Shown: one piece after another, positions 35,088-47,107 of the stretch
Position numbering within the stretch: position 1 is the first letter of the stretch
Layout: each line of letters begins with the position of its first letter
Assembly (NCBI GenBank): GCA_903813345.2
Contig: CAIIXF020000001.1
Coordinates: forward strand, 29,884,001-29,948,000
Length of the DNA: 64,000 nt
Source: Owenia fusiformis
Lineage: Eukaryota
Direction: 5' to 3'
Notes under the pieces: generated by a model
What the model saw: only the letters and a program-made list of their open reading frames with translations
What the model was told of the DNA's origin: nothing
The model's database searches: none
Position numbers and translations under genes: made by a program

Positions 35088-36051
35088 TTACCAAAAATAT
35101 ACTTCTCCAAATATACTGTTTATATTTTGAACAAAATATACTATTAATATCACAGTTACTCTGTTGATTGATTTTTGATGAGTTTATCTACTGCTTGAGA
35201 TACTTAATTATTAATATATTTGTTACTGGTAATTGGTGCATTAATAGAATATCAAAAAAAACTGACAAAATTATTTGAGTATAATCTACAATGACTCAGA
35301 AAGCTTCACCTTGAAAATGAATTGTGTTAACAAAACAATAGCCTAGTCATGGGTTCATTTGAAGATGTTGCCTGCTGAAATGAGGTTATTACTTCTATCA
35401 CCACCTATATTGAAAACATAAGTACAAACTCGTTATTCGCCCTGGTCTATGGTTCCACCTTTTGCTCATGTCAATATCATAAAATATAAGCCTTCTGAAC
35501 TTGTAACTTAGTGCCTCGAGAACATGCCTTGCAAGGTGGTAATAATTGTGTTTAAAGTGCTTAGAATTCCCATTCCGTAAATTTTCCCAACTGTGTCTGC
35601 TTTTGAGTTAAGTGTGGCTTTGTCTTTCTTACTTGGGCCAAACTAAGATATTCCCAAAATACAACAACAAAAAATAATTCAAATATTTAATTCTGATATT
35701 GACAAAAATATATTCTTAATCTTCACAATGCATTTTAATGTACATTATATATTCAGGAAGCGACCATTAGATTATGATTTTTTCCACCTTGATTTTTTAA
35801 ATCATACGATCAAATTTCGAATTTTTACCTCAAAAATAATTTTTACCTCAAACATAATTATTTTAAAAAAAAATCCATTCCTATTTATCATATATAGATG
35901 CCAGACTAAAGGTAATGGCCATTAGATTCTCCTGATATTGAGTTATTTATTCTTTGAATGTGCCATTTTTGCCATTTGCCTTGACATTCACGTCTGTTCA
36001 CTAATCCCTTGATAACTGGCCAAAATATGATTTAGACTCATGGGCTATATC

Positions 36052-38740
36052 TCAAGATTCATCATCACTATCATCTGCTTGTAATCCACCAGAGAAAATC
36101 CTTTTCATGAATGATTTATTATTTCCAACTGCAGCATCAGAGCCTTTCTGTTTCTTTTTCTCTGGAACTTTTTCATCTTCAACACCTTTGCGCTTTCTCT
36201 TTTTATCCTGAATTTCATCTTCTGTTGCAGCTTGGTGAAACTCCCAAGGTCTAAGATTCAGTGTTCGTTCTTTTTTCTTTTCAATTCGTTTGAAAGCTTT
36301 TCGCTTTTCAATGTTATCGATATAGAAATTTGTTTCTTTTTTGACCTGGGCAATTTCAGTTCTCATACGGTGTGTGTGCACTGCACTTTCATATGCAAGT
36401 CTTTCATTTAAATGAGCCCATTTAAAGCGATGGAGGTACTTCATCATCCAGACTTCTTCATACCAGGGGCTTCTCCGTTTGCCCCCAATTTGTTTGTTAT
36501 TAAGGGTAACAGCAACTTGCTTAGCAATCTTTTTATCCTTGAACTCAATCCATCCTTCTGAGAATACTCTATTCTTCTTATGTTCTGGGGCCCTCTCTGA
36601 AAATAGAAAACTACCTGTCAAAATATTTTTCAACATGCTTTAACAAAAATTTCTTTACTCCAAACACTGGTCAAGGTATTTTGTATTTTATGGTTTTCAA
36701 TTAAACCATTACACACAATTTTTATAGTTCATGTGCCTTTAAATAAAACTTGTTTAATCCTTACGCCACTTGGACCAGCCAAAAATGTTCAGAATGGCAG
36801 GTGTTCACATTTAGAATGGCAGACTAAACAAGGCATTAACATGCAAAATGTCACAACATGCCATTTGTTGCAGATGCCATCCATCAAATGCCAAACACCA
36901 ACTGCCTAACACTACAAAAAAGTTGGAGACTATAACAATATGTCACCACTTGTTGTGGTGAAATATAAATGGGATTGGAAAATTATTTTGAGGTGTCTAG
37001 ATGAGAGAAGAGTTTAGATTTACAGGTTTTACTCTAAGTTGTCACTTGTACAAATAGCTTAAAGATAGGCTTAAAATTTTAAAAATTAACAAGAAACGGG
37101 GTTACAGATTGTTTGCCTCCAGATCATTGGAAGCAGTAGTGACGGATTAGATAAGCTACTTCATGAAAAGAGGTGAAGTATAGAGCTGAATTCAGTAACT
37201 GTAAAAAACATTTTAGAACTCCTGAAGAATAGTTCAAATCTGAGGACACTGCAACAGTTTGTGGACATGGTATAAGTAGAAGTTTTAGAGTAACTATGAC
37301 TATTATTGCCATTGGTTTCTTTACAAATCACTGTGAAATTATGTTATATAGCCTCTAATTTGAATGTTAAGTGATTACTCACATACATGTACAGTGTAGT
37401 TGTTAATGTCAATTTGAAATTTGTTCTAAAACATATTTGCATAAAGAGAAACTGCTTATATTGAGTAATTACACAACAAAAGTGTTAAAACTACTGATGT
37501 CATATACTACAACATCATTGATTATTTGTGGTAGATACATTTATTGTAAGGAAACAAATCATATGGTTATACCATCACTAAAACATACTTAAAGCTATAA
37601 CATGTTTATAGCAACAATTCCCATCTTGTCTAGGTTTCAAAATAATAAGTTAATATTATTTCAGGTGATAATTAAAAATAAAACCAATTTTTTATTTATT
37701 TCTGGTTTCTATGGTAACACCATAATATTAATTCTCAGGTCACATTCAAAAATATATTTTCCACTGTTAGAAACAAGATTTCCTACTATTATGATTCTGA
37801 TTAGGGATTGGTTTAATTCATGAATAATGGTACGGAATTCACTAAATTTAAATTATGACACTAATTGATGGAATGTATGTTGTAAACCTTATCAAAACTA
37901 CAATGATATTTTTTCATATTGAAACCATTTGGCGGCTCACTTTTATTTTACATCAAAACTAGAAAATAGCAAGAATATGACAAAAATTGAGAAATATTAA
38001 GTCAATTTTTGGACTGACGAAACATGATCGGATCCCTATGGAAATCCCAAATTGGGAAATCCCTGGAAATGGATTCTTAAAAATGGGTAACAATTTTTGG
38101 CATTCAACTGACGATACCTCAAGAAAAGCCAGAGTTTCCTGAAGATTGGCATTGCAAACGAAGCTGGCCTAAGGTAACACAAATGTGAAGAGGGGTGATG
38201 ACATATGTCTCTGATTGGTCAAAATCGAGGCCTCAAAAGTTTCGAAATGCGCTTCAGATAATATTATGTTCATTTCTGGCGAGTTAACTATTATAATAGC
38301 TAGTTATTTCACATCAATAAATGAAGATGTATGGAATATGCTTACATCGATAAAATATCACAAAGATTTATCGTATGCTACGTCCCCACTACGTTGTGGA
38401 TTTGATAACAAAAGATGTGTTATATTCGAAAACCAACTGTTGATTTAATAAGACCAAATTCGGTTGTATGGGCGACCTTCGGCTGCGGGGCATTATGGCC
38501 CAACCTCGGTTGAATGGAAAGGCTGTCTCTAATTTAACAACCGGATGTAGAGAATTGAAAATTACCATCTGGTTGAAGGAAGATTCTGTCCAATTCACCG
38601 TATACACTGAATATCTGACGTATCTTTTTAACACTCATATACGTAGGTATTCTACTGAAATATATTATTCCTGGTTCCTTTGCTTTTTTCTTCGACTTTT
38701 TGGTGGTTTTAGAAGCAACTTTTTCATTTTCAACTTCCAT
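36052..38740 (-). CDS. ABT1: Activator of basal transcription 1 / pre-rRNA processing protein ESF2 homolog, ~239 aa, 2 exons
   Basis: Exons 38740-38566 and 36596-36052 are joined by a phase-1 GT-AG intron. The motifs PGIIYFSRIP...GELDRIFLQP, FSEGWIEFKDKKIAKQVAVTLNN..IGGKRRSPWY..W.MKYLHRFKWAHLNE and RMRTEIAQVKKETNFY are characteristic of ABT1/Esf2. Confidence 0.93.
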
Positions 38741-39286
38741 TATTTCGATAGCGTAATCCCGCAGAACATGTGAAATGAACCTCCGGTAAATATATTTTTC
38801 ATCAATTCTCTTTTTATTTATATACTTTAGAAAGGGTTTAAGCCCGGGGTTTAAGTAATTTATATTTCGTATGTAGAAACGGTAAAATATGGTTTCACTA
38901 AAGGGATTTATTCAATGGGGTTATACTTTCTTGTGTTCTTGTCGATCTATTCAGATGGGCTTGGGCTAACCATGGGCTTTCAACTAGAAGGGTATGCAAC
39001 TCTATGTAATAACATGAGACCTTCAAAATGAGCAATGACATGCTTCCCTTTTATGGCAATATTTCAAAAAGTATTAGATAAATGTATATGTTTTAGTATT
39101 ATTTTGAATAAAAATCAATTTTTTAATATGATTTAAGCATAAAATATATTCAATATCATATAAAAGTAAACAAAAGGGTAGTTTAGAGAATACAACACCA
39201 AGAAAATGCATGCTGGTGGCTCCCAGAGGGTATACACATTTTTCACCAAGTGCTTTTTTCATCTCCAATCAAATTGCAGGATTCGA

Positions 39287-43855: not shown

Positions 43856-44188
43856 TTAAATTATCAAGATGTATGTAGAAGATCATGTTTTTATTTTTGA
43901 GTTATTTCTTTTAATCATCAATAAAAAGTACAAAATAAGATTTTCTTGGAATGTGTACATTCTCCAATTTTGAAAACCCATGGCAATGTTTATGTATGAA
44001 ATATGGGAAGTTGCCTACCCTTCTAGTTGAAAGCCCATGGGCTAACAAAGTCAGCACTATCAATACCCTTTGCATTCGTTTGACTTCACTTCTTAAAAGA
44101 GCTTCGTCTTCACTCTTTCAAACTAAAATAAACCTGTGAACTCACTGCGCCAATCAGTGTTCGTCTGCCAAATTTGACCGACGTTCTA

Positions 44189-44425
44189 CAGTTGGGGACA
44201 AAAATAAATGACAGGTCGATTTTCGATCACCATTTCCTAATTACGGTGGTCTGAAAGCCCATAATTTCCAATATTGTCTAGATACATATCCCTTAAAATT
44301 TGCATATTTTACATTTTGTATAATCTCATCCACTGATTTATGGCCTCTTGTAAATTCTCTTATTTTTAACATGGGAAATCCTCACTTCAGCAAATCCACC
44401 TGTCATTTATTTATGTCCCCAACTG
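44189..44425. mobile_element. Tc1/mariner-type MITE
   Basis: TA|CAGTTGGGGACAAAAATAAATGACAGGT...ACCTGTCATTTATTTATGTCCCCAACTG|TA; the TIRs match at 27 of 28 bp. Confidence 0.85.
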
Positions 44426-44734
44426 TATATATGGTCATTCCTTCTGACGTCATCCTTGAGCCCGGAATTGGCCAATGACATTCGCATATTTAATTAGCAC
44501 GCTGATTTGTGGAAGAAAGGTCAGCGCATAGGCCAGAAGTGATTTATTACCCAAACTGTCACCCGTACCCGTCGTTGGGGTGGGGCTACTAAACTGTAAT
44601 ATGGTCTCTACTAGGTAGAGTGTAGTTTAACTAGACTCTGCGCGCAGGGTACACTATCAATGGTATACTCTACCTTTAGTAATATATAATAGTTTTTCTC
44701 TATTATATATTACTAAAGTAGATCAACCATTGAT

Positions 44735-46419
44735 CACGGTGTTATAGCATGACAGATACGACAAGGCAATTGGCCAAATTTTGCGGTAACGATAACAAAA
44801 AATGGCGGACGGGAAAGACAGCATGTCCTCTTTTTCGCCTGTAGGCAAGATTCACAGTAAGCTTTCCTTTTCAACTAGTTCCATTCGGTGATGCATATGT
44901 GAATGGTTATAAAGATTGAGTTAAATATGTCGTGTGGTCTACAAGAAGCAGAATATAAGCTGTAAACCTACCCAGCTGAGATTTCGAAGTTCATAATTTT
45001 TAGTCCTTTTTCGTGTTTTCTCAGTATATGTGCCTCAGAGCCACTCAAAATACTAACTGTACGTAAACTGTGTATAAACAAGCCATAAAATGACAAATGC
45101 AGAACAGAAATTTGGTGAATATTGTAGATAATAAGGTTTCAATCGCAAGGTCGTTAGACAGATACGTATGTATTGCATGCTTTTTTATGGACAGGAACGC
45201 ATTGTATTAGTTTTACATTAGATGTTAGCGGACGGTTACATGCAAGTTCCTGTCAAGTCAAGGTCCCTAGTTGAATAGCTCTCTCTGTGTGAACTGCCTA
45301 TATTTGTTTTCAGGACTCGCAAGAGACGCTCTTGCTTGAGCCTCTATAGGGCAAGGAAAAAAATAGCGAAAGCCAATGAAAGTGAAAATGATTGTAATGA
45401 AGAGGCAAAGGAAGACATAAGTAACAACGAGCAGGCGACGGAAGAAAACAACTACAAATTAATTGATGATGTCATGAGTGACATTAGACATATATTACCA
45501 TTATTACAAATCATATTCAGCTGTTTATGTCACCATCGTCATAATAGTGGAATAACGTCATTTCAACGTTATTACTATTATTACTATTATTACCATTACC
45601 ATTACCATTACCGTTAATGCCCAGGGCTGAAATAGCAAATTTGAAATAGAAAATCTTACGCACTGAACGATATCACTTTTCCCGGGAAACATAGCCGGGC
45701 GGATAATATCATTATTGCCCGACTAAAGTCATTAACGCCCGACACAATATTGCTCACGTCAATATAGCAATTTAAATGCCTTCTCAACTAGTACTAAAAC
45801 CCCTAGAACAGGCCCTGCAAGGTGGTAATAATACGATTTCATCTATTATAGCTTACAAAACTCAAATCCGGTTGAAAAACATTTCAATTTTGGATCACAA
45901 GCGATATGAAATGATTCGGTTTTACAAATATGAACGAGGTTAGCGTAACTGTCTATCAATTTTTGGCGTATCCGCAAATTCAAAATACATTATTATGGCT
46001 TGAGTAGAACATATTAAGTGGTTTACAATGCTTAATTGGCTTTGTATGATCGTATGTAGGTTACCTTTATATACACCAAGGTTGTTGCGCAATGTAGATC
46101 ATGCCCTAACGAGGAAAAGAAACAAATAACTAAATTTTATGAAGTTTTGAATTTCAAACTCGACAGTTTTTCGCTTATTTCATGTTATCCATGGGCGTCG
46201 ATTTGCAAAGACTACGTTCAAAATAAACATTACTGAATGCATCACCGAATGCGACGCTTACATAAATCTTTCATGTTTCTATTGATACGCAGTAGTAGAA
46301 CATAATGCACCTACCTTAGCTTTCTGTTTCATCGTGGCCATTTTATTGGATAAATCAGTGATCGTATTCGACTAACCTCGTTTTCAGAGGTGGCGTATCC
46401 GTCATGCTATAACACCGTG
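44735..46419. mobile_element. 1685-bp CAC-terminated element with 5-bp TSD (Transib/RAG-like), internally deleted
   Basis: 26-bp TIR CACGGTGTTATAGCATGAC(A/G)GATACG with one mismatch. TTGAT is directly repeated at 44730-44734 and 46420-46424. Removing the element plus one TTGAT restores the host palindrome CACTATCAATGGT...ACCATTGATAGTG. Confidence 0.8.
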
Positions 46420-47107
46420 TTGATAGTGCTGACTTTGCTTTCAACTCAAGGGTCTACGCTTCCCACATTTCATACATAATCATAGTCCAACTTCATTAAA
46501 CTCAATAACGGCGTTCTTTGCTATTAGGAATTTTGTTGGTCATTATTGGGTTTAACCCCCTTACTATTCTTTCCTTTATGAAAGTCCTTATTCAAATCAG
46601 CCCCATAACTATACTTGTGTATTGAAATCTTTGGGTTAAAAATAGGCTGGATTTAATGGTTATTTAGATAAAATTAAGCTTTGAATCAACAACTGACAAT
46701 GTTTTAAAACCCCAAGATTTCAATACAATAAAGTAGTTGTGGGATGACTTGAAAAATCGACCCCACATTTATGGGGTAATTTATGTATGGTCCAAACTGA
46801 AGGGAGAAGGGCAATTTGTGATTGGGATTCAGACGATTGGGATTTGGATCATTGGGATTTGGACCAATGGTGTGCCCTCACTATTTCAACCCCACGTAGA
46901 TGATATCCTATTATCCTCACACCAATATGCCAAGAGTTACAAATTTCCTCTGAAAATAGGGATGTGGGAAAAGCCGGAAGACTTGCTGAGGATAAGATCA
47001 AGGGAGACATCAGGGAATCTGTACCTGGAAACCTCTCCCCCACTACATAAAAATGTTTGATATTTTTAGATGAGGACAATAGACCAGGGTTATGTGTCAA
47101 CTGTAGG

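Follow-up and report, generated by a model that had tools for sequence, protein, structure and literature searches.

Transib elements are defined by ends that begin with CAC and by target site duplications (TSDs) of 5 bp (PMC1131882), and both traits are common to RAG-like (RAGL) elements as well (PMC7204232, PMC9435367, PMC4411706). In protostome RAGL elements, the consensus of the terminal inverted repeat (TIR) has a conserved AAA at positions 8–10 (PMC7204232), YY1 motifs have been described for ProtoRAG ends (PMC7481187), and the N-terminus of RAG1L is expected to hold Chapa/C1–C3 zinc fingers (PMC4411706, PMC7204232). RAGL elements are described as low-copy (PMC4411706), and non-autonomous copies are known (PMC7204232). 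Duplications of 5 bp are also reported for families of the hAT5 group (PMC12730594), and target preference is described as GC-rich for Transib and AT-rich for hAT elements (PMC1131882). Chapaev and CACTA elements are given duplications of 2–4 bp in a recent preprint, which also describes Kodama copies as widespread and the autonomous Nozomi as present in few genomes, and which treats ends, duplication length and target as supporting, labile traits that should not override transposase homology (bioRxiv 10.64898/2026.08.26.747230).

We analyzed an element of 1,685 bp in Owenia fusiformis, located at 44735–46419 (+) of a 64,000-nt stretch of DNA (the window) on contig C1 of the 500-Mb assembly. 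All features named in a preliminary description of the locus, among them the CACGGTG start of the TIRs and the duplication TTGAT, were found in place, and the terminal inverted arms now measure 29 nt each with a complementarity of 93%. The features discussed below are as follows.

44735..46419, + strand: whole non-autonomous element of subfamily A
44730..44734, no strand: TSD TTGAT, left copy, from the sequence
46420..46424, no strand: TSD TTGAT, right copy, from the sequence
44735..44763, + strand: left TIR, starting CACGGTG, from inverted-repeat detection and the genome-wide end-pattern count
46391..46419, − strand: right TIR, on the same evidence
44799..44807, + strand: YY1-type motif over the start codon, identical to CGCCATNTT when read from the minus strand and a predicted binding site (motif as given in PMC7481187)
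44802..44857, + strand: predicted first exon of the lost gene, which in sister copies comprises 18 codons and two further bases; one donor base is missing here
44858..45313, + strand: predicted intron 1, with its AG acceptor at 45312–45313
45314..45476, + strand: predicted start of exon 2, a basic stretch resembling a localisation signal followed by an acidic linker; right limit approximate
45549..45600, no strand: what is left of the central hairpin after its collapse, together with a short run of triplets; both limits are approximate
45640..45833, no strand: piece of another, commoner repeat, with a 76% match at window positions 35462–35546
46107..46255, − strand: stretch mirroring 44878–45026 at 63% across 139 aligned nt; the pyrimidine tract read as an acceptor lies within it
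46315..46341, − strand: proposed right-hand exon, coding role unsupported, with a YY1-like motif

The heptamer CACGGTG, two bases off the Transib consensus CACAATG and one base off the RSS, is present at both ends and thus gives the element the CAC...GTG termini of Transib type. Positions 8–10 of the TIR read TTA. Transib ends typically have an A-rich nonamer about 23 bp inside the heptamer. On the left end the heptamer is not followed by such a nonamer, and AA at nonamer positions 5–6 of the ends appears only with a one-base shift of the spacer. A short motif of the inner half of the TIR reappears within both arms. The insertion site lies inside a palindromic repeat (44652–44734), which the element interrupts; removing the element together with one TTGAT in silico restored a 12-nt match, judged by eye, to the reverse complement of ∼44652–44663, in line with the earlier argument that the interrupted host palindrome supports the duplication. 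Short hairpin repeats surround the element at 44187–44427 and 46602–46743. Elsewhere in the window, two open frames at ∼36000–38911 (−) look like exons and may belong to a conserved gene for an RNA-binding protein of pre-rRNA processing.

Globally, the 26-nt end pattern was found 54 times in forward and 54 times in reverse orientation, giving 108 exact A-type ends in the assembly (control, 0), and a variant pattern returned 444 further ends, which make up an older subfamily B. Where B-type ends could be paired, they mostly lay 0.6–1.3 kb apart (first 100 of the 444 ends). Copies were fetched for their left-end likeness, length or subfamily and form a non-random sample. Among these fetched loci, an exact 5-bp duplication flanked 44 of the 45 distinct complete copies, although two of the 44 have common flanks and probably derive from one event that was later duplicated. 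None of the 45 carried a duplication of 2–4 bp, the length that would have spoken against the reading in the preliminary description. The genome-wide search and TSD tally that it had proposed thus bear out its picture of a CAC-ended, internally deleted transposon with 5-bp duplications. Subfamily A copies of 1.6–1.8 kb (n = 15) diverged by 0.4–3.7%, and this low divergence (median 1.7%) argues for recent copying. The duplicated target bases were G or C in 43 of 220 cases (19.5%) compared with 33.8% in the flanks (p = 2e-6), and the target logo of the family showed a preference for T as the second base and A as the fourth. We take this pattern to resemble that of hAT elements and count it in favor of the hAT5-type parent considered below. 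A metagenome scan with the TIR and an Rfam search each returned 0 matches. Our literature search, whose scope lay outside Repbase and Dfam (either of which may hold the family), found no published account of it. We conclude that this is a real, recently copied non-autonomous transposon family, in which the young subfamily A stands beside the older subfamily B.

The central part of the element is a hot spot of deletion and insertion. In most A copies it forms a hairpin with arms of ∼60 bp, for instance in one copy fetched (L019:2300-2435), where its folding energy is −54 kcal/mol. The repeat piece at 45640–45833 is present in subfamily A, not in B, whose copies resume at reference position 1230; in the RNA reads this piece shows high depth with loose ends at 45648 and 45832. 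At the tip of the central hairpin, a 14.9-kb copy on contig C3 (L021+L022, G000:C3:26992407-27007332) holds 13.2 kb of an unrelated DUF6589 element. The joints of this insert show no duplication, its large frame is cut at the 5′ end, and the copy that carries it is the only one that lacks a clean 5-bp duplication. Judging by its motifs, the DUF6589 element is presumably Academ-like.

The left end retains what the preliminary description had read as the spliced 5′ end of a gene. In the window copy, an ATG at 44802 is followed by a GT at 44857, an AG at 45312–45313 and a frame that is open from 45315. The earlier observation that the exon phases fail to join holds for this copy, where a single base has been lost and the donor is out of phase, but not for sister copies with an intact donor, where the phase-2 end of exon 1 connects through the acceptor at 45313 to a basic-then-acidic frame. 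Across the A-labelled copies (n = 38), the donor position reads GT in 18, AT in 17 and carries other changes in 3, the window copy being one of these. The open basic-then-acidic frame reported beyond the acceptor is indeed present, but its acidic part depends on a run of seven A that most copies lack. An exon-2 frame of at least 80 codons was found in 6 of the 33 A copies with a recognisable acceptor, five of which also have an intact donor, and most of the remaining A copies run into a stop after 16 codons because the A run is one base shorter.

We compared majority sequences of nine A and up to eight B copies. Two of the 56 nt of exon 1 differ, as does one of the first 48 nt in exon 2, so that the left exons carry 3 changes in 104 nt, all of them silent, compared with 64 in 445 nt of the intron, where they are spread evenly over codon positions (Fisher p = 7e-4; the 48-nt limit was set after the alignment had been inspected). 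In the next 47 aligned nt of exon 2 we counted nine changes. The acidic part is thus not conserved in DNA, yet its frame is kept across a 15-nt indel. Since sister copies join both exons in frame and the exons change more slowly than the intron, the left exons are the true 5′ end of a gene, as the preliminary description had it. Low divergence near the end of an element can also reflect protein-binding sites. The majority sequences of A and of B alike have a dead donor: the GT-to-AT loss prevails in both subfamilies, and only some A copies and three B-type copies still have an intact donor. This shared loss either arose twice or spread between the subfamilies; in the former case, donor-dead copies perhaps harm host genes less. 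The exon-2 peptide, which is short and of low complexity and hence a weak query, had no match in Pfam, the protein library or the atlas. The Chapa/C1–C3 zinc-finger pattern is absent from the ∼90 surviving N-terminal residues of the left gene and could lie further in.

The right end was described earlier as the start of a second, convergent gene, and here the evidence points elsewhere. On the minus strand of the window copy, an ATG at 46341 is followed by a donor after 46315 and an acceptor AG at 46107–46106. The donor reads GTAGGT in subfamily A and GTTGGT in subfamily B. All three changes in the 27 nt of the proposed exon alter amino acids, and this exon together with the downstream frame differs between A and B at 24 of 207 nt compared with 25 of 209 nt in the intron (p = 1.0), showing no constraint in any frame. 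The donor is in phase 0, whereas the sole long frame past the acceptor, which spans 60 codons in many A copies, requires phase 2; the earlier caveat that the phases do not join therefore stands on this side. The ATG lies in a YY1-like motif, which fits well with a second caveat, namely that the start motif may be a YY1 site. Within the window, the combination of an ATG in a YY1-like setting with a donor-like site after it is uncommon, with 1 case in 798 tiles of 160 nt, and this speaks in favor of the earlier reading. The mirror score between 46107–46255 and 44878–45026 was reached by 0 of 200 shuffles for the window copy and by 21 of 200 for a B copy, which makes the match of the right pyrimidine tract to the left intronic one suggestive only. 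We infer one of two explanations for the right-hand ATG, either a YY1-type motif or a mirror of the left end that has since decayed. Another family (L119:244-1488, G000:C1, about 3.98 Mb), whose TIRs are different after CACGGTGT, shares the layout of the element: its left side has a short exon, a phase-2 intron and an exon 2 that opens with a basic stretch, and its right end contains an ATG with a donor.

RNA evidence came from three raw runs of one study (1,055, 973 and 722 matching reads; 6–12% of each run was read) and one contig set. Reads over the element were thin, about equal on both strands and mostly from other copies. Neither of the splice joints predicted for the left and right ends in the preliminary description was among the 13 joints listed in these data. 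This thin two-strand coverage is consistent with passive read-through, and nothing in it points to a spliced transcript. None of the indexed holders listed for the sequence is on record as RNA.

The element contains no transposase frame. We found no autonomous parent of the family among the loci that we checked, which comprised the first 100 B-type ends out of 444 as well as RAG1-like, Chapaev-like and CACTA-like transposases; a parent may still be present in this assembly. The 14.9-kb copy on C3 has a frame of 1,952 codons, which belongs to the DUF6589 element; a PDB search with this frame returned 0 matches. The same 13.2 kb occurs on C11 (L043-L045, about 14.70–14.72 Mb) with 99.5% identity. 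Since this twin lacks family ends and its frame extends further 5′ (2,641 codons), the 13.2 kb in the C3 copy is a captured piece. Copies of 11.6 and 10.6 kb contain retroelement frames. What looked like solo ends were copies whose partner end carries mismatches or that contain nested inserts, all 46 matches to the exon-2 pattern lay in or beside short or nested copies, and the B-type matches, 15 in-frame and three with an intact donor, were short or truncated copies.

Profile searches of the genome with the RAG1 and RAG2 Pfam models gave no match, a weak result given that no control gave a signal and that a RAG1-like element of this genome escaped the RAG1 profile. A RAG1-like query gave 26 matches, and none of the nine regions of 16–37 kb checked around such loci had family ends. 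The RAG1-like element confirmed in this genome has ends starting CATATCG; its family (L056:5149-7327, L075-L078) has several near-complete copies of 96–100% identity whose ends start with CAT, not CAC. The CACTA profile gave 15 matches, none with family ends in 1.5-kb flanks; one CACTA-like match lies 1.2 kb from a 57-nt right-end remnant and was rejected as a parent because homology stops there. Likewise, 30 of 94 Chapaev-like matches were checked with 1.5-kb flanks and had no family ends. The genome holds many Chapaev-like transposase families (L167-L196), several with near-identical copies and open frames of 650–900 codons.

The element probably is a non-autonomous, Transib-type deletion derivative of a one-gene, intron-containing parent. 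Such a parent would have carried a single intron-containing gene read from the left end, from which an internal deletion would have removed the catalytic part; both ends were spared, as were the promoter region and the gene's first exon, its first intron and the beginning of exon 2. The left gene presumably encoded the transposase; the enzyme would be of Transib type and would act in trans, so that transposase supplied from elsewhere would bind the CACGGTG ends, excise the element and insert it at AT-rich sites with a 5-base stagger, giving the 5-bp duplication. Because no parent was found, the superfamily assignment, which we regard as likely, is drawn from the ends and the duplication length only. 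TransibN (PMC1131882) and the Drosophila Kodama/Hopper elements (10.64898/2026.08.26.747230) are described with the same CAC heptamer ends and strict 5-bp duplication, and likewise as internally deleted copies of 1.2–1.7 kb in high number with a parent that is rare or missing from the assembly. Unlike Transib examples, with A at position 2 and T at position 4 of GC-rich targets, our family favors AT-rich sites with the T and A exchanged, and unlike non-autonomous Transib elements it shows no A-rich nonamer in register on the left end and its gene opens with a short exon and an intron. These differences bring in a hAT5-type or other non-Transib parent of the same anatomy, which we judge rather unlikely. 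The 5-bp duplications of hAT5 families (PMC12730594), the CA..TG ends, the AT-rich sites favored by hAT elements (PMC1131882) and the inner-TIR motif repeated inside both arms would all fit such a parent, yet CACGGTG stands close to the Transib and RSS heptamers. No hAT transposase is linked to the family, and hAT5 end sequences for comparison were not found in the literature. CAC ends are also typical of Chapaev and CACTA/EnSpm elements, whose transposases are numerous in this genome, but the 2–4-bp duplications of these groups are missing from the family, their checked loci lack its ends, and Chapaev proteins, in contrast to the left gene, begin with a CxxC zinc finger.

The similarity of both ends, each with an ATG in YY1-like context and a donor-like site, raises the question of a parent in which a transposase gene and a helper gene other than RAG2 converged, the 5′ ends of both having been kept. 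The matching layout of L119, despite its different ends, and the 60-codon frame past the right acceptor speak for such a parent, but the lack of constraint on the right, the incompatible phases, the altered donor of the older subfamily, the pyrimidine tract that aligns with the left intronic one and the lack of a matching joint among those listed make it improbable. As our search brought up no autonomous parent, a two-gene origin lacks support but is not formally refuted. A more specific version, in which several families with CACGGTG ends and 5-bp duplications form an undescribed lineage of the Transib/CACTA clade that targets AT-rich sites and combines an intron-containing gene with a basic-then-acidic N-terminus and a convergent non-RAG2 helper, is slightly more doubtful still. 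As for the RAG-like ancestry proposed in the preliminary description, a true RAG-like parent with RAG1L and RAG2L is highly improbable. The resemblance of the ends to a heptamer, the duplications of 5 bp and the YY1-type motifs that lie near either end recall RAGL elements, ProtoRAG and TransibSU (PMC7204232, PMC4411706, PMC7481187), and non-autonomous RAGL copies could account for a deleted form. However, the genome gave no RAG1 or RAG2 Pfam match (weak, as noted), the RAG1-like loci that we checked have other ends, and no fetched copy contained convergent RAG1L and RAG2L genes or any such sequence. TTA replaces the AAA of the protostome RAGL consensus, the surviving residues lack the Chapa zinc finger, only one stub is under constraint, and hundreds of copies contrast with the low copy number described for RAGL elements.

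At present the family simply joins the other non-autonomous transposons, and its chief value is that of a pointer. An undescribed two-gene lineage, if true, would be an independent two-gene design beside RAG1–RAG2, and only a two-gene parent would have a bearing on RAG origins. Should the enzyme be of hAT type, CAC ends and 5-bp duplications would be insufficient to call an element Transib or RAG-like. Very recent mobilisation implies that the species should still have the transposase, for which we now know the 5′ exons and the AT-rich target of 5 bp. An enzyme of Transib type would extend the range of targets known for the group that gave rise to RAG1.
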